A stretch of DNA of 64,000 nt, from the UHGV virus genome UHGV-0038492. One strand, written 5' to 3'. The stretch is from a virus. A program made the position numbers and the translations under genes. Of this stretch, positions 10,842-53,864 are shown in pieces (position 1 is the stretch's first letter; each line of letters opens with the position of its first letter). The notes beneath the pieces were generated by a model. The model was given only the letters and a program-made list of their open reading frames with translations, searched no databases and had not been told where the DNA came from.

Positions 10842-10895
10842 TAGGTCGTTCCTTAGATCGGAAATGTAATCAGATATATTTTACTTAAGTGAATA

Positions 10896-10920
10896 GGGGC
10901 TGAACTCGCACTTCAGCCCC
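10896..10920. other. 9-bp stem-loop (GGGGCTGAA / TTCAGCCCC) in the divergent intergenic region
   Basis: Perfect 9-bp inverted repeat 10896-10904 / 10912-10920 with 7-nt loop; no adjacent T-run, so more likely a regulatory or processing structure than a terminator. Confidence 0.4.
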
Positions 10921-10973
10921 TATGGGCACGTTTCTTTCGAAACGGAGTTACCACGTGATTAGGAGACAGACCA

Positions 10974-11051: not shown

Positions 11052-11229
11052 TCATAGTATTACTTAAAATTTACAGATTATCCCTTTATTCTGCTACTCG
11101 GGATACCGGTAGGGGGTAGGGGGCAATATGTATACGGATATAAATAGCGGAGGTATACGTAGTATACCGACATACTCTTCCCAGAGGAACGTAGTGACTT
11201 CCTTATTCCTTTTTAGGAGAATAAACCCC

Positions 11230-12542: not shown

Positions 12543-12571
12543 GTAACGAAAAACCCTAAAGGAGAGTAAAG

Positions 12572-15159: not shown

Positions 15160-15190
15160 GGTGGGGTGTAAGCCCCACCTTTTATTTTTT
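15160..15190 (+). terminator. intrinsic terminator (GGTGGGG / CCCCACC stem + TTTTATTTTTT)
   Basis: 7-bp stem 15160-15166 / 15173-15179, 6-nt loop, immediately followed by a T-run. Confidence 0.8.
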
Positions 15191-18713: not shown

Positions 18714-18762
18714 GAGAGAACCTTCGGGTTCTCTCCCTTCTCTTTTATTTTTTTTCTTTTTA
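18714..18762 (+). terminator. intrinsic terminator (GAGAGAACC / GGTTCTCTC stem, TTCG loop, long T-tract)
   Basis: 9-bp stem 18714-18722 / 18727-18735, tetraloop TTCG, followed by CCTTCTCTTTTATTTTTTTTCTTTTT. Confidence 0.85.
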
Positions 18763-24777: not shown

Positions 24778-24783
24778 TACTTG

Positions 24784-24822
24784 CCCCTAATCCAATCGGA
24801 TTAGGGGTACTTTCATTTATTC
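24784..24822 (+). terminator. hairpin terminator, CCCTA...TAGGG family (CCCCTAATCC / GGATTAGGGG)
   Basis: 10-bp stem 24784-24793 / 24798-24807, 4-nt loop, moderately T-rich tail. Confidence 0.55.
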
Positions 24823-24840
24823 CCCTAAAGGAGCAAAGGT

Positions 24841-25373: not shown

Positions 25374-26318
25374 ATGACTTTTCCATCTGAAGTAATCTAC
25401 ACACTGGCTAATATTTTTCGCCGTGGCCATAATTTCCCACAGTTCCGGAAATCAGCAGATGTTACAGCCGACTTTCTGTTTAATTATCTAATTGGTACCG
25501 ATCCTGCAAGCGTTACGCAGGAAACAATTATGGATATTGAACGTGTCTCGGAAATTATCCCGATCGACTACGCCTCAGGGTATCAAGACGGAGTTAAGTT
25601 CAACTTCTCAATGGGTATGCGTCGGACTTCCATTGACATTAAGCCACGCACGAGTAACGAAACCCTTCCAGCAGCAAACTACAATCACGAAGCTCACGGT
25701 AACTGGTTAGTTGTTGTAGAGCAGGGTAAGAATCAGTATGAAGTCGTCGCGGCTAAAGAAGAAAACTATTTCGACCTGGGTCAGATTTCTCGTACTGAAG
25801 AAATCTTTTTTAATGCACGTCAGGGCAATATCGGTGTAACTGGAAGTACGGTTTGTTTCATTCTAAGCAGCTGGCCGCATATTGGTTACGTCTTAACCAA
25901 CGCCTCCAAAACATTCCACACTTTAAAAATAGAGCACAGTCATAAAGTGCTGGGTGATTTGTTTGCTGCCGACGACGAACTACCAGTCCCTGGTACAGAA
26001 GTCGCTGTCTGTGAAAACTACGATGATCTGAAATCTGTGCTCGTTAAACGTGATGTTTTCGAATCGTTAAACCTGGATTTCCCTGGTGACGAAAAAGAAA
26101 TATCCGTAGCTGACCTGGTAGAAGCATTGTGTCAGAAAGACCAAGCTAATGAGATCAGTGACGAAGAAGCGGAACTCTTCCAAGTTCAACAACTCGTCAG
26201 CAAGGTTATCGGCGGCCAGGAAATCGTTGACACCCTTATGGCTTTACCGCCGAAGAAACGTACTCAAAAGTACATTCGTGAACTGGTTCTTGAAAACCTG
26301 GGTCAAGCCAAAAAGTAA
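25374..26318 (+). CDS. hypothetical protein (314 aa); paralogue of the gene at 26379
   Basis: RBS AAAGAGGA; N-terminus MTFPSEVIYTLANIFRRGHNFPQF...FLFNYL parallels MFPSSEYLTHLAYGIRRGSVFRTR...FLFDRL of the next gene. Confidence 0.75.
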   Translation: MTFPSEVIYTLANIFRRGHNFPQFRKSADVTADFLFNYLIGTDPASVTQETIMDIERVSEIIPIDYASGYQDGVKFNFSMGMRRTSIDIKPRTSNETLPAANYNHEAHGNWLVVVEQGKNQYEVVAAKEENYFDLGQISRTEEIFFNARQGNIGVTGSTVCFILSSWPHIGYVLTNASKTFHTLKIEHSHKVLGDLFAADDELPVPGTEVAVCENYDDLKSVLVKRDVFESLNLDFPGDEKEISVADLVEALCQKDQANEISDEEAELFQVQQLVSKVIGGQEIVDTLMALPPKKRTQKYIRELVLENLGQAKK

Positions 26319-26326
26319 TTTAAGTC

Positions 26327-26360
26327 CCCTACTCCTCCGGGAGTAGGGTTATTCTTTTTT
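26327..26360 (+). terminator. intrinsic terminator, CCCTACTCC family
   Basis: 9-bp stem CCCTACTCC (26327-26335) / GGAGTAGGG (26340-26348), 4-nt loop, followed by TTATTCTTTTTT. Confidence 0.8.
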
Positions 26361-26927: not shown

Positions 26928-26937
26928 AATAAAAGCT

Positions 26938-26975
26938 ACCCTACTCCCGAAAAGGAGTAGGGTAATTTCTTTTAG
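26938..26975. terminator. bidirectional terminator, CCCTACTCC family
   Basis: 10-bp stem ACCCTACTCC (26938-26947) / GGAGTAGGGT (26954-26963), 6-nt loop; U-rich flanks on both strands; between convergent gene ends 26927 (+) and 26972 (-). Confidence 0.75.
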
Positions 26976-37183: not shown

Positions 37184-37200
37184 CGTGAAAATAAAGATTA

Positions 37201-37249
37201 CCCCTAGACCACAAGGTCTAGGGGTAGCTTTTACTTTTTATTTTTTGTT
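37201..37249. terminator. bidirectional terminator, CCCTA...TAGGG family (CCCCTAGACC / GGTCTAGGGG)
   Basis: 10-bp stem 37201-37210 / 37215-37224, 4-nt loop, followed by TAGCTTTTACTTTTTATTTTTTG; sits between convergent gene ends. Confidence 0.8.
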
Positions 37250-37993: not shown

Positions 37994-38090
37994 TTAAAAC
38001 CTCGGATTATAAGTCAGGGTTACATAGTAAAGTCTTTTTACAGTTCATCCTGAACTTATGACCGAGATTATCTCACAAAGGTAAAGCTCG

Positions 38091-38405: not shown

Positions 38406-39902
38406 ATGGCAGGCCCAACTAAGCAAGTTATCGGTGAAGTAATTCGTCCTCGTTTTAACGTTTATACCATCATGGACCACGCCTTAGGCAACTACGAAAG
38501 AGGCGAAGATGGTTTATACTACCTTAACGGTGGTTTTGCCCACATCATGGGTTTCGCGGGTCGTGGTAACACCTTCAAATCTACACTGTTGGATTTCTGT
38601 ATCTTCCAAATCCTGCAACGCTATAAAGCAGAGTGGGGTTCGAAATACGATACTGAAGTGTCTGCTGCCCTCGATCGCTTAGAGACCGGTTATATTTCTG
38701 CCATGCACGCCAACGGTATTGACGATGGAACTTCGGTACTGGAACTTATTCACGAAGGTCGTTATAACCTCGTTGGTTCTGACGTGATGCCAGGGGAACA
38801 GTATTACAGTGACTATATTCGTGATGAAGTGGAAAAACGCTTCAAGCAGTATATGTCTGGTAAAACCCGCGTAACGCCGTTCCTTGACCCGGTTCGTCGT
38901 AAGCAAAAAGAAATCCTTGACCCGTGGCTGTATTCTATCGACTCCCTGTCGGAGTGGCACTCGTCTTCTCTGGAAGACAAGCACGCTAAAACAGATATCG
39001 GTGATTCCGATCAGAACATCCTCAACGCCCACGACGCCTTGCAGAAATCGAACATGATGAGTCGTTGGCCGTCTGCGTTTGCCCGTGGTGGTTTCTACAT
39101 GGGCTTTGTTGCACAGATGGCCGATGACTCCGGTAAGGCGATGGCGGGCGGTCGTCAAGGACAGAAAGCAAACGCGAAGCTGTTGGACGATGCGAACGAC
39201 GATCTCAAATTCGCAGGGATTCCTCGTCGTCAGTTAAGCTTCCTGACTAACTCGTTTATTGTTGCGACAAAATCAGGCGAGCTGAAAAAGGACCAGAGTT
39301 ATAACGCGCAGACCGGTGTTAACGAAGAACTTTACCCAACCGCACGTTCAAAAGCCATGAACGCGTCGGTTAACGACCTGAAAGTCATCACCTTTACACA
39401 ATACCGTGCTAAAGGCGGTCACACGGGCGTGAAGTTCCAGATGATCTTCTCGCAAGAGATGGGTCTACTGTACCACCTGAGCTTGTGGCATTACCTGAGC
39501 GACACCCTGAAAAAATCCGAATTTGGCTTTACGTCCAGCGGTAGCGGTGGTTCCATTAAAGAACTCCAGATTCTGCCTGGTGTTAAATTCCAGCGTACGA
39601 CGATTCGTGACATGATCGACGATAACCCGAAACTGCGTCGGGCATTAGAAATCACGGCTGCGATTGCGTACATGCAAAACAACTACCATCGTTTAGAGGT
39701 TAAATATCACCTCACGATGGAAGAAATCTACAAACTCATTGATGAAAAATGGGATTGGAATGAGATTCTGGAGAACACCGTAGAATACTGGATGTTTAAA
39801 GACCAGGAAACGAAAGGCGGTAAACGCACGTTAACTGCCCGTACGATTCTGGGTATGGCCGTGGACGGCCTGGAACCGAAGTTCCTGACCAAAAAGAAAT
39901 AA
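38406..39902 (+). CDS. hypothetical protein (498 aa) with deviant P-loop-like motif
   Basis: GFAGRGNTFKST resembles a deviant Walker A; no confident family assignment. Confidence 0.7.
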   Translation: MAGPTKQVIGEVIRPRFNVYTIMDHALGNYERGEDGLYYLNGGFAHIMGFAGRGNTFKSTLLDFCIFQILQRYKAEWGSKYDTEVSAALDRLETGYISAMHANGIDDGTSVLELIHEGRYNLVGSDVMPGEQYYSDYIRDEVEKRFKQYMSGKTRVTPFLDPVRRKQKEILDPWLYSIDSLSEWHSSSLEDKHAKTDIGDSDQNILNAHDALQKSNMMSRWPSAFARGGFYMGFVAQMADDSGKAMAGGRQGQKANAKLLDDANDDLKFAGIPRRQLSFLTNSFIVATKSGELKKDQSYNAQTGVNEELYPTARSKAMNASVNDLKVITFTQYRAKGGHTGVKFQMIFSQEMGLLYHLSLWHYLSDTLKKSEFGFTSSGSGGSIKELQILPGVKFQRTTIRDMIDDNPKLRRALEITAAIAYMQNNYHRLEVKYHLTMEEIYKLIDEKWDWNEILENTVEYWMFKDQETKGGKRTLTARTILGMAVDGLEPKFLTKKK

Positions 39903-39908
39903 AAGCGT

Positions 39909-39933
39909 TAGGGTAGGGTAATCCCCTACCCTA
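39909..39933 (+). other. CCCTA/TAGGG-family hairpin in inverted orientation, directly upstream of an RBS, no U-tract
   Basis: 10-bp stem TAGGGTAGGG (39909-39918) / CCCTACCCTA (39924-39933), 5-nt loop; followed by GCTAAGGAG and ATG 39948, not by a T-run. Confidence 0.5.
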
Positions 39934-39947
39934 GCTAAGGAGTCGTT

Positions 39948-40247
39948 ATGCGTTATCAAACGGAGATTGTGGAACGCTTAAGTGAAGGTTTAGCCAGCGT
40001 CAGCCTGGAAACAGCAGCGGCATTTCGTGAGACTTTCGCTACTTTCTTTCCCGATCGTGAATCTTTTTGTTTAAAGGTCGGTGAATATTATTCCAAGTTA
40101 CTCGAACACTACGGTTATCCGCCGGTGAAATTCGACGTACCTGAAAACACCGACGACATCAGTTATTGGATTGAAACCCTCGAAGCAGGGACACTATCCA
40201 ACTTGCGTAAGGCGGTAGAAAATGAAACTCGATCCAGCGCGGCGTAA
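39948..40247 (+). CDS. hypothetical protein (99 aa)
   Basis: Track ORF; RBS AAGGAG. Confidence 0.6.
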   Translation: MRYQTEIVERLSEGLASVSLETAAAFRETFATFFPDRESFCLKVGEYYSKLLEHYGYPPVKFDVPENTDDISYWIETLEAGTLSNLRKAVENETRSSAA

Positions 40248-40890
40248 AAAAGCAGAAGCTTACGCCTTACAAATCTTAAACCTGGTTGACCCCTCTGGGA
40301 TTAACGCGGAAGCAGCAAAGAAAGCCTTTGCTCGAATGACGGACGAACAGTTTAATCGTCTTCGTGAAGGGCTACCGATTTACAACCCGGTCGGTAGTAA
40401 AGTTAAAATAGACCACATGCGAAACGTTAAGCTTTGTCGTGTTTTAGGTTTGAACCTGGAACAACGGTTGTGGTTAACTGAACCGAAAACGGGTGTTTTC
40501 CATCGTACTCGCTATCCTCATCTGGTGCTACGTTTACCTGCGCGTCGTCAAACACAGATGCAAGAAAAGAAAATGGCGGTAGCGAAGAACGACAAAGTTC
40601 GTGATAAACTCTCCGGTCAGGTTGTTGGTCCTTCTAAAGCATCTGGTGTGTCCTTCCCAGAAGCGTACATCATGTACTCCGATGGTCACGACTGGACACT
40701 GAAAGAGTTTCTGTGGGCGCGTGGGGGTAACGAAGCGTTACAACGTGCGTTCTATCAATCGTTACGTCAAACCGGTAAGGGACGTATTGACCTACCGGGG
40801 GCAGAACGTACCAGTTCAAAAGCAACACGTACCTGGTCTGCGTATCTGAAAGCGATGCACATTGGTAACAACATAGGCCATCCGTCATGA
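40222..40890 (+). CDS. hypothetical protein (222 aa)
   Basis: Track ORF; overlaps the upstream gene by 26 nt. Confidence 0.6.
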   Translation: MKLDPARRKKAEAYALQILNLVDPSGINAEAAKKAFARMTDEQFNRLREGLPIYNPVGSKVKIDHMRNVKLCRVLGLNLEQRLWLTEPKTGVFHRTRYPHLVLRLPARRQTQMQEKKMAVAKNDKVRDKLSGQVVGPSKASGVSFPEAYIMYSDGHDWTLKEFLWARGGNEALQRAFYQSLRQTGKGRIDLPGAERTSSKATRTWSAYLKAMHIGNNIGHPS

Positions 40891-41609
40891 GATTTTCTCG
40901 ACGTTTTTTGATTGATATCGATGCGTTGTTTGACACCCGAATCGGTTGGGTCAAAGCCATCAAACCTGAAAGATTGGAAATTATGGATTACGACGTTTAT
41001 CGTCGTCGTTTTACGGAGGAATGGGCGACTGTCTTGGGGTTTGAGAATTGGAAAGAGGAGTATCAGAAACGCGATAAACGCGCGTTGATGAATGCGGAAC
41101 CCACCGAACTGTTGTTGACGATGAAGAACGAGTTCGAATGCATGTTACTCGAAATCGAGATGCATTCGCCTATCGAAAAACCGACGCTGACGATCAACAC
41201 CTGGCCGTATACTGACCTTACCGACCAAGAAATGCAAACGTTCTTGCAAATGTTCCGTATCTATTACGATATGGTACAGGTTGAGCTAGTGTCGTGGCCA
41301 CATTCGGAACTCACACCAGGTCGTTTAGCGACAGCTTGGGATTGTTGGATAATGTACGATTGGTTCGCTTGGATTGAACTCAATGCGAAACATCTGAAAA
41401 AGCCTATCCCTAGCTTTACCATTACACACCCTGCCCTGCTAACACCGGAACTTACAAAAGAGACGGTAGAGCAGCTTAAACGCGATGGTGTAAATCCATT
41501 CAAGGAACACATCCGGTTTATGGCAGAGTGGGTCGGTGTCGACCCACGTGATTCTGCGTTATTTAGTCTGGCTCGTCCGAAGAAGGACGCGCAAACGCCG
41601 CAGTCATAA
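40887..41609 (+). CDS. hypothetical protein (240 aa)
   Basis: Track ORF; start overlaps the preceding stop. Confidence 0.65.
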   Translation: MRFSRRFLIDIDALFDTRIGWVKAIKPERLEIMDYDVYRRRFTEEWATVLGFENWKEEYQKRDKRALMNAEPTELLLTMKNEFECMLLEIEMHSPIEKPTLTINTWPYTDLTDQEMQTFLQMFRIYYDMVQVELVSWPHSELTPGRLATAWDCWIMYDWFAWIELNAKHLKKPIPSFTITHPALLTPELTKETVEQLKRDGVNPFKEHIRFMAEWVGVDPRDSALFSLARPKKDAQTPQS

Positions 41610-42027
41610 TGGACTTCACGTCAATTTGTTCGCCAACCGGAGCCAACTCCCCTTCCGAGATTTCGACGTTAGGAATGTCTGGAAGGGTGGGTTGGTAACT
41701 ATTATTTTCATCAGGTTCTTCGTCGTGACGTTTTATTTTCACGTTGCCACGCTGCATCAGAATCGTATTCAGTGCGTTAGCCAAGTCTTGGTTCGCTTCA
41801 CTGTTTTTCTGGGCAGCAGCAACACGACGTTTAGAAATGATTTGCTTATCTAGGTCGTTTAATAACGTCCCGATACGATCCACGGTCTTTAAGTCTTTGT
41901 GAGCATTAGGATCGTCTAAGATTAAATTGACAATTCTGACACGGGCTTGTTGCGTTTGGCGGAGAAGCGATTCTTCGTCGTCTACTTCACCATCTAACGC
42001 CTGGTATTTCACTTCTTCTTCAGCCAT
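41563..42027 (-). CDS. hypothetical acidic protein (154 aa)
   Basis: Minus-strand ATG preceded by GAGGTGG; 3-prime end overlaps the convergent plus gene by 47 nt. Confidence 0.55.
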   Translation of the reverse strand: MAEEEVKYQALDGEVDDEESLLRQTQQARVRIVNLILDDPNAHKDLKTVDRIGTLLNDLDKQIISKRRVAAAQKNSEANQDLANALNTILMQRGNVKIKRHDEEPDENNSYQPTLPDIPNVEISEGELAPVGEQIDVKSIMTAAFARPSSDEPD

Positions 42028-46256: not shown

Positions 46257-46261
46257 CACCT

Positions 46262-46300
46262 ACCCTACTCCTGTCTGGGAGTAGGGTATTTTCATTTTTT
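46262..46300 (+). terminator. intrinsic terminator, CCCTACTCC family
   Basis: 10-bp stem ACCCTACTCC (46262-46271) / GGAGTAGGGT (46278-46287), 6-nt loop, followed by ATTTTCATTTTTT. Confidence 0.8.
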
Positions 46301-46320
46301 ACCCTAAAGGAGAATTTACC

Positions 46321-50991: not shown

Positions 50992-51028
50992 ACCTACCTC
51001 CGAAAGGAGGTAGGTTAACTTTCTTTTT
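50992..51028. terminator. bidirectional terminator (ACCTACCTCC / GGAGGTAGGT, GAAA loop)
   Basis: 10-bp stem 50992-51001 / 51006-51015, followed by TAACTTTCTTTTTTTTCTTTTTTT; U-rich on the other strand as well; between convergent gene ends 50983 (+) and 51038 (-). Confidence 0.85.
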
Positions 51029-53819: not shown

Positions 53820-53864
53820 TTTCTACCTCTTTAAGATGGGGGTGGTTTCCCACCCCCGTATGTA

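Follow-up and report, generated by a model that had tools for sequence, protein, structure and literature searches.

The palindrome at positions 39909-39933 of the window, the 64,000-nucleotide stretch of viral DNA analysed here (UHGV-0038492), is, on comparison with related phages, the local copy of a conserved plus-strand RNA stem-loop at the 3' end of the uvsX-like gene in SPN3US-like jumbo phages. It is an intercistronic RNA hairpin of a known general kind and is in the U-less state that is ordinary for this locus. The individual element is fairly ordinary. A hairpin kept at one gene boundary over five genera, with an optional U-run, is nevertheless a natural experiment on the need of the polymerase for a U-tract.

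The window is from an SPN3US-like (phiKZ-related) jumbo phage. Its nucleotide identity to the Salmonella phage SPN3US (Seoulvirus), to Asesino and phiEaH2 of Erwinia (Erskinevirus) and to Machina is about 72-75%. The features surrounding the hairpin are as follows.

38406..39902, plus strand: UvsX-like recombinase gene, 498 aa (ORF list; PHROG phrog_97, E = 1e-54)
39907..39935, plus strand: RNA stem-loop of 12 pairs including one U.G (folding; positional orthologue in 20 distinct relatives)
39909-39918 and 39924-39933, plus strand: perfect DNA palindrome core, with the loop TAATC at 39919-39923 (sequence)
39937..39942, plus strand: Shine-Dalgarno (SD) sequence AAGGAG of the 99-aa gene (sequence; an AGGAG/GAGGA block is kept there in most relatives)
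39948..40247, plus strand: 99-aa gene (MRYQ...) without assigned function (phrog_6181, E = 1.5e-18)
40222-40890, plus strand: RNA polymerase beta-subunit fragment gene (phrog_3233 'RNA polymerase beta subunit', E = 1.7e-93)
40887-41609, plus strand: phrog_3328 gene, overlapping the 40222-40890 gene (PHROG)
41563..42027, minus strand: convergent gene (phrog_5894, E = 2e-56; annotated in Asesino as gp242 and in SPN3US as SPN3US_0220)

The annotations came from PHROGs, a Pfam search with seven neighbouring proteins having returned nothing useful. The uvsX-like gene ends in a TAA stop at 39900-39902, its protein in ...LTKKK*, and its orthologues carry the annotation 'putative UvsX' in Asesino, Machina and others. 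The start codon of the 99-aa gene is fixed through conservation of ATGCGTTATCA in most relatives, the Wellingtonvirus-type equivalent being ATGCAGTATCA. Orthologues of the 40222-40890 gene are annotated as virion structural proteins in SPN3US relatives. This gene and the one at 40887-41609 overlap and belong to the same apparent unit as the 99-aa gene (40222..41609, plus strand). From the divergent gap at 37994-38090 to position 41609 the genes are head-to-tail or overlapping, and the 45-nt gap that holds the hairpin is the sole sizeable non-coding space between these points.

The focal sequence reads TAGGGTAGGG / TAATC / CCCTACCCTA, in which a perfect stem of 10 bp encloses a loop of 5 nt. 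In plus-strand RNA the helix is lengthened by U.G and G-C pairs to 12 pairs, 7 of them G-C, spanning 39907-39935 at about -22 kcal/mol and beginning 5-7 nt past the uvsX TAA. A 71-nt segment has a minimum free energy of -22.9 kcal/mol (z = -4.3; 0 of 200 shuffles fold equally well), and the probability of hairpin formation exceeds 0.99 in contexts of 100-260 nt. Nine perfect hairpins of at least 10 bp are present in the window, against 0.35 expected from shuffles. The hairpin that was reported in the preliminary description is real and not a product of chance.

The stem is followed by GC-TAAGGAG-TCGTT-ATG. The SD at 39937-39942 starts 1-2 nt past the helix base and ends 5 nt ahead of the ATG at 39948, so that, as first described, the hairpin directly abuts the SD and ATG. 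Neither the SD nor the start codon is in the helix, and the mean unpaired probability of the SD is 0.41-0.70. The absence of a plus-strand U-tract was also correctly noted: the stem is followed by GCUAAGGAG, the tail GCTAAGGAGTCG has only 2 T in its best 8-nt window, and no U-tract starts 0-2 nt 3' of the stem. Searching with Rfam covariance models gave no credible match, the best scoring 16 bits against a threshold of 58.6 bits (E = 0.35). A G-quadruplex in the G-rich arm was rejected, just two G-runs being present there.

The end of uvsX at 39888-39902 is a lysine run, CC AAA AAG AAA TAA (AAG AAA AAA TAA in relatives), and runs of CAAAAAG/AAAAAAA stand ahead of the uvsX stop. This run resembles a dnaX-type slippery site and lies 8-12 nt ahead of the hairpin. 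Hairpin-stimulated -1 frameshifting and stop-codon readthrough were both rejected, as in the window and in Asesino the frames end after 2-16 codons and never join the next gene.

The gaps between uvsX and the next gene were gathered from GenBank phages and IMG/VR contigs, giving 20 distinct sequences of 39-46 nt, including that of the window, which span Seoulvirus, Erskinevirus, Machinavirus, Wellingtonvirus, Derbicusvirus and the window's own clade. All 20 contain a hairpin whose G-rich arm comes first (G-first), with a folding energy between -15 and -25 kcal/mol. It starts 2-9 nt past the uvsX stop (4-8 nt in most) and is followed by the SD of a conserved gene whose product begins MRYQ (MQYQ in the Wellingtonvirus type). 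Nineteen of the gaps fold better than at least 97% of shuffles; for SPN3US the figure is 92%. The stem sequences vary by lineage (GGCGGGG, GGTGGGG, GTGGCGGG, CGCGGGGCAG, GGGTAGGGG and GTGGGGTGG) yet remain paired. Nearly the window's stem is found in Phobos and EarlPhillipIV (GGGTAGGGG/CCCCTACCC). SNUABM_8 and ChrisDB are exactly one compensatory pair apart, and the window differs from two sister contigs (C and D, below) by A-U versus C-G. In the 10 sequences that could be aligned, pairing holds in 86% of cells and 4 pairs are altered on both sides; the covariation score in this set is 0.338, compared with 0.107 in shuffles (0 of 500 reach the observed value) and at most 0.116 for slid registers. 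Pairing in this hairpin is under selection. The loops, read on the plus strand, are GNRA (GCAA, GAAA, GUAA) in 13 of the 20. The UAAUC loop of the window is not GNRA, nor are GAUUA, UAAU and AUUA in its sister genomes; 13 of the 16 others are GNRA.

These comparisons also identify the strand on which the element works. The plus-strand fold is more stable than the minus-strand fold in 20 of 21 gaps, by a mean of 2.6 kcal/mol when shared ancestry is left uncorrected, the asymmetry being small in the window's own clade (0.5-3.8 kcal/mol). G.U pairs occur almost exclusively on the plus strand. Wherever a T-run is present it adjoins the stem on the plus strand, as in Asesino, phiEaH2, SPN3US, SPFM4 and pEa_SNUABM_29, and weakly in SPAsTU and Caitlin. 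The plus-strand G.U pairs, the GNRA loops and the stem-abutting T-runs indicate that the element works as a plus-strand RNA. The plus-strand RNA role that had been given to the hairpin is thus backed by G.U pairs confined to that strand, by the GNRA loops and by covariation.

It was also stated at first that U-rich sequence follows the stem on the minus strand, which is the case (ACGCTTTTATTTCTTTTT), and that no minus-strand gene is nearby, which is imprecise. The gene at 41563-42027 is transcribed towards the hairpin from 1.6 kb away, with zero intergenic space in between, and this arrangement is conserved in relatives. An intrinsic terminator halting antisense transcripts from this convergent gene would fit the minus-strand tail, and a consensus scan lists the site as a minus-strand terminator. 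This is, however, highly improbable. The tail consists of ACG and then CTTTTATTT, which barely passes a loose terminator scan, and its U-run is coding sequence 3-4 nt off the focal stem. This T-run is simply complementary to the conserved Lys codons (KKK*) that end uvsX, and in every relative 3-6 nt separate it from the stem. Termination here would also imply a 1.6-kb antisense 3' UTR, and both the strand bias of the G.U pairs and GNRA loops and the weaker minus-strand fold in 20 of 21 gaps favour the plus strand.

Close to the convergent gene there is another hairpin, GTGGGTCG-gtgt-CGACCCAC at 41528-41547, located within the plus-strand gene 40887-41609 and 16 nt past the stop of the minus-strand gene 41563-42027. 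It is identical in four of four related contigs, two of which are just about 81% identical to the window in this region. It may be a 3' hairpin of the minus-strand gene that is embedded in coding sequence.

The loops of the hairpins were compared between the window and four IMG/VR genomes, referred to here as contigs A to D (loci L040-L047, L004/L005 and L021-L028). Contigs A (UViG_3300014543_000002) and B match the window at about 96-97% identity across most of what they share with it. In contigs C and D the UvsX protein is 96% identical to that of the window, with nucleotide identity of just 75-90% or so. Across these five genomes, the exact reverse complement often stands in place of a hairpin loop, between arms and flanks that are unchanged. 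The focal loop is TAATC in the window and contig B, GATTA in contig A, TAAT in contig C and ATTA in contig D. Flips are also found at 24784-24807, 26327-26348, 26937-26964, 37199-37226 and 50992-51015, and flips accompanied by one extra substitution at 46261-46288 and 53838-53857. The flip pairs are aatc/gatt, tccg/cgga, cgaaaa/ttttcg, acaa/ttgt, taatc/gatta, taat/atta and gaaa/tttc. The 50992 site has the same flip in two non-sister contigs, and the UUCG loops at 18714 and 35303 never flip. Relative to the window, about 7 of 15 compared hairpins are flipped in contig A and 1 of 15 in contig B; flips are present in at least four of the five genomes. The density of loop flips in this lineage is striking, as is the difference between contigs A and B, and the flips are the most curious side finding of the analysis.

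Loop inversion through template switching is a described type of mutation (PMC8794818). The flips could reflect such mutation at a high rate, a flip-flop mixture in the population or a library artefact, and for contig A a library or assembly effect is possible. The flips indicate that the loop holds no orientation-specific information in the window's clade. That the hairpin might be a DNA-level palindrome (a cruciform, or a replication or recombination site) or a neutral remnant, with no function as RNA, is scarcely credible. Its arms do form a perfect Watson-Crick palindrome, and loop inversion between close relatives requires the DNA itself to undergo intrastrand pairing or template switching. 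Loop inversion is, though, a known mutational by-product of any hairpin (PMC8794818), and the cross-genus covariation, the plus-strand G.U extensions, the GNRA loops and the fixed position between stop and SD indicate RNA.

In the same set of contigs, the 314-aa protein encoded at 25374-26318 is only 63-67% identical to its counterparts (L040-L043) in contigs that are 96-97% identical in nucleotides on either side. This points to a mosaic or replaced gene within a near-identical backbone.

The preliminary description placed the focal hairpin in a family within the window, and such a family exists. About 10 intergenic hairpins combine a C-rich 5' arm (with TACCCTA/CTCC words) with a 3' arm rich in G and a T-run, and the loop is often of the UUCG type.

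9421, 24784, 26327, 26937, 29966, 33038, 35303, 37199, 46261 and 50992: C-first family hairpins

Intergenic gaps show a roughly 9-fold enrichment of the 7-mers TACCCTA/TAGGGTA. The focal arms hold TAGGGTA, GGGTAGG and CCTACCC, 7-mers that are 9-12-fold enriched in gaps, and so share the words of the family. The 5' arm of the focal hairpin has 6 G and 0 C, against 0-1 G and 4-7 C in the family, and neither a T-run nor TTAT is directly 3' of its stem. It had been described as a family member in reversed orientation, which does not hold. A sequence of the form A-loop-rc(A) has A-rc(loop)-rc(A) as its reverse complement, so a G-first hairpin cannot be an inverted C-first copy; the orientation of a palindrome is defined solely by its loop and flanks. 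An inverted family copy was rejected on this logic and on the loop flips seen between genomes that are 97% identical. The focal hairpin belongs instead to a G-first class that is specific to the uvsX locus and present there in all relatives compared. A rule that G-first hairpins never have a T-run also fails: a T-run follows the G-first hairpin at 15160 and those of several orthologues.

The claim that the focal copy is unlike its relatives in lacking a T-run stands within the window and fails at the uvsX locus, where the U-less state is that of the majority. In Asesino, phiEaH2, SPN3US and pEa_SNUABM_29 the hairpin is directly followed by T5-T6. On a neighbour-joining, midpoint-rooted tree of UvsX, the T-run is confined to the clade of Seoulvirus and Erskinevirus, with a short one in Caitlin. 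The SD directly follows the stem, without a T-run, in Derbicusvirus and Wellingtonvirus, which are the outer branches, in most of Machinavirus and in the window's clade; the hairpin in the T-run lineages is 12-15 nt from the SD. Because the T-run is limited to the Seoulvirus/Erskinevirus branch, the U-less form, which is the commoner, is by parsimony probably also ancestral at the uvsX locus. This distribution means that the hairpin has been kept with or without a T-run. With its apparently gained U-run, the Seoulvirus/Erskinevirus hairpin looks like a standard intrinsic terminator. Terminator predictors that require a U-run will miss conserved RNA elements of this sort.

The function tentatively preferred is that of an intercistronic 3' hairpin of the uvsX cistron, acting as an exonuclease barrier, as a weak attenuator with read-through, or as both. 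Given the lack of a U-run, RNA polymerase would most likely read through the hairpin into the 99-aa gene and on into the genes for the virion RNA polymerase subunits. Expression of these downstream genes seems to rely on such read-through, the space between hairpin and SD being too short for a promoter of their own. A very stable hairpin 5-7 nt past the stop would block 3'-to-5' exonucleases, and the uvsX segment would as a result outlive or outnumber the distal part of the polycistronic message, with weak attenuation at the hairpin as a possible added effect. The message for the recombinase would in this way be kept distinct from those of the low-copy virion polymerase genes. In the Seoulvirus/Erskinevirus branch the added U-run would convert the hairpin into an ordinary intrinsic terminator. 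The element could therefore show how expression of a recombinase needed in bulk is separated from that of low-copy virion polymerase subunits. Nothing is published on how transcripts end or are partitioned in SPN3US-like jumbo phages, and a literature search for these phages found no transcriptome data. They use their own RNA polymerases and, by analogy with phiKZ-like phages, transcription would take place inside a protein nucleus.

The multisubunit RNA polymerases of the phage might terminate at a U-less hairpin. A genuine, possibly leaky, terminator for these non-canonical polymerases, at which a U-run is unneeded and only a fraction of transcription or none continues downstream, is considered unlikely. 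Its location right after a stop codon, its high stability and the canonical U-run of the Seoulvirus and Erskinevirus orthologues are what would be expected of a terminator. More than half of the mapped termination sites of phiKZ and 201phi2-1 are not of the ARNold type, yet stable structures are possible in most of these regions. Of the RNA 3' ends mapped in the two phages by ONT-cappable-seq, about 70 of 133 and about 80 of 132, respectively, coincide with stable structures outside the class of canonical intrinsic terminators (PMC10914365, PMC11512511). These data fit either a stabiliser or a U-independent terminator, as 3' ends found by ONT sequencing cannot tell termination from processing. 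These polymerases seem to use U-rich tails, as suggested by the consistent T-runs of the roughly 10 C-first hairpins in the window and by the phiKZ terminator motif, which ends in TTAT. The lack of room for a promoter between the hairpin and the SD also argues against termination.

The tight spacing of hairpin and SD, together with pairing of the SD in Wellingtonvirus and Derbicusvirus relatives, could instead point to a translational role. The 99-aa gene might be controlled by coupling to uvsX translation, with the ribosome melting the helix base, by a standby site or insulator, or by a protein-binding operator beside the SD. The helix begins 5-7 nt past the stop, within the footprint of a terminating ribosome, and its other end is 1-2 nt short of the SD. 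In EarlPhillipIV, Phobos, SNUABM_11, related UViGs and Machina the helix is longer, as bases immediately past the stop pair with some of those of the SD. In nucleus-forming phages, ChmC has binding sites close to start codons, some of them internal (bioRxiv 10.1101/2023.09.22.559000). Translational control is nevertheless distinctly unlikely for the window. Neither its SD nor its start codon is part of the helix, 40-70% of the SD is unpaired, and the T-run lineages have 12-15 nt between hairpin and SD. The variable stems and loops and the loop flips argue against sequence-specific recognition by a protein. The earlier suggestion that the hairpin could gate translation is, as far as masking goes, not borne out in the window, although in some distant relatives the helix reaches the SD.

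In Phobos (L019), EarlPhillipIV (L020) and the Wellingtonvirus-like sequences L018, L030 and L032, bases after the stop pair with the SD and the hairpin tops an SD-masking helix. In these phages the helix would be opened by ribosomes that terminate on uvsX, and translation of the two genes would be coupled. The pairing between post-stop and SD bases is absent from the window.

A stable hairpin near a 5' end can guard mRNA from RNase E-dependent decay, and the hairpin is 13 nt upstream of the ATG. It had been proposed on first description that the structure is 5'-proximal and could stabilise the downstream mRNA. This would need an RNA 5' end just upstream, from a promoter or a processing site, and is very unlikely. 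No promoter-like motif is seen in the 3' end of uvsX, where synonymous sites vary among relatives, in a phage group whose promoters are undefined; no promoter consensus could be derived for the phage. Elsewhere in the window, inspection of the gaps by eye shows AT-rich blocks resembling early promoters (...TATTAC.../GATATTA); none is present in or upstream of the focal gap. A fixed spacing to the stop codon is also not expected of a 5' element. The phiKZ late-promoter motif TATG at 39947-39950, whose overlap with the ATG is mere coincidence, was rejected as a candidate, being absent in all relatives and placing the start of the RNA inside the start codon.

The preferred reading, of a stabilising or attenuating 3' hairpin, is in line with known intercistronic elements. 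Examples are the mRNA-stabilising REP hairpins (malE-malF), reportedly described by Newbury et al. in 1987, and the stable tetraloop hairpins of T4 intercistronic regions, said to have been described by Tuerk et al. in 1988. They likewise are very stable hairpins just past a stop inside a polycistronic unit, without a U-run. Stable tetraloops are typical of them, and are present as GNRA in the relatives of the focal element and as UUCG elsewhere in the window. Conservation of structure over sequence is another shared property, the focal hairpin being a stable structure between co-directional cistrons that is conserved in this way at the uvsX locus. REP differs in being a dispersed repeat, whereas the focal element is single-copy and locus-specific, and the UAAUC loop of the window is no special tetraloop.

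Canonical intrinsic terminators have the same GC-rich hairpin shortly past the stop, but the window copy is without the plus-strand U-run. The conserved terminator motif of phiKZ-like phages, 5'-BCCYCCCCHWWDGGGRRGGBYTTATKYYGT-3' (PMC10914365), has apparent counterparts in the C-first TACCCTA/CTCC hairpins with T-runs in the window, the phages being in the same supergroup. The focal stem has words in common with these C-first hairpins (GGGTAGG/CCTACCC and TAGGGTA/TACCCTA) that are nearly confined to intergenic hairpins. Compared with the phiKZ motif it has the opposite arm polarity, with the G-rich arm 5', and neither TTAT nor a T-run, a form that is unreachable by inversion. Helices that couple translation or mask an SD have the same position of the helix base, within reach of the terminating ribosome, with the SD adjacent. 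The extended helix takes in SD bases in Derbicusvirus and Wellingtonvirus, while the SD of the window is outside it and mostly unpaired.

The architecture of the uvsX hairpin, with a stop, a stem-loop and an SD and without a U-run, is shared by a second element in the window.

53838..53857, minus strand: G-first hairpin with a GAAA loop, between a 2377-aa tail-fibre-like gene and a 733-aa gene

In the minus-strand order (53857-53838) this consists of TAA, 7 nt, GGGGGTGG-gaaa-CCACCCCC-ATCTTAAAGAGG, an AGAGG SD and a GTG start. The position is conserved in Asesino, which has a T-run, and in SPN3US, Machina and Phobos, which have no clear T-run; the loops are GNRA in all four. It is conceivable, if quite improbable, that the U-less, G-first, tetraloop-capped hairpins between stop and SD at uvsX and the tail-fibre gene are a separate class of signal in nucleus-forming jumbo phages, acting as U-independent stop or pause sites for the unusual polymerases of these phages or as landing sites for the RNA-binding proteins that collect close to start codons on exported phage mRNAs. 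If so, the frequent loop flips would show that folding back of these palindromes is unusually common while the phage DNA replicates.

Other gaps of the window contain further repeated or structured sequences. The 11-mer CCCTAAAGGAG has three exact copies (12554-12564, 24823-24833 and 46302-46312), each just 5' of a start codon, where about 0.03 copies would be expected by chance. The gaps at 24778-24840 and 46257-46320 resemble homologous cassettes, made up of a hairpin, GGGTAyTTTCATTTwTT and CCCTAAAGGAG, and this likeness suggests that they are duplicated terminator-RBS modules. The focal gap was not counted as a member of this RBS block, its resemblance being loose (ACCCTAgCTAAGGAG). A G-first hairpin without a T-run, ATAGGGGCTGAA-ctcgcac-TTCAGCCCCTAT, is found at 10873-10923 in a divergent gap, right after the AT-rich promoter-like block ATATATTTTACTTAAG. 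It may form part of a 5' UTR or mark where a short RNA ends. The direct repeat GGTAGGGGGTAGGGGG (11108-11127) is immediately 5' of the ATG at 11128.
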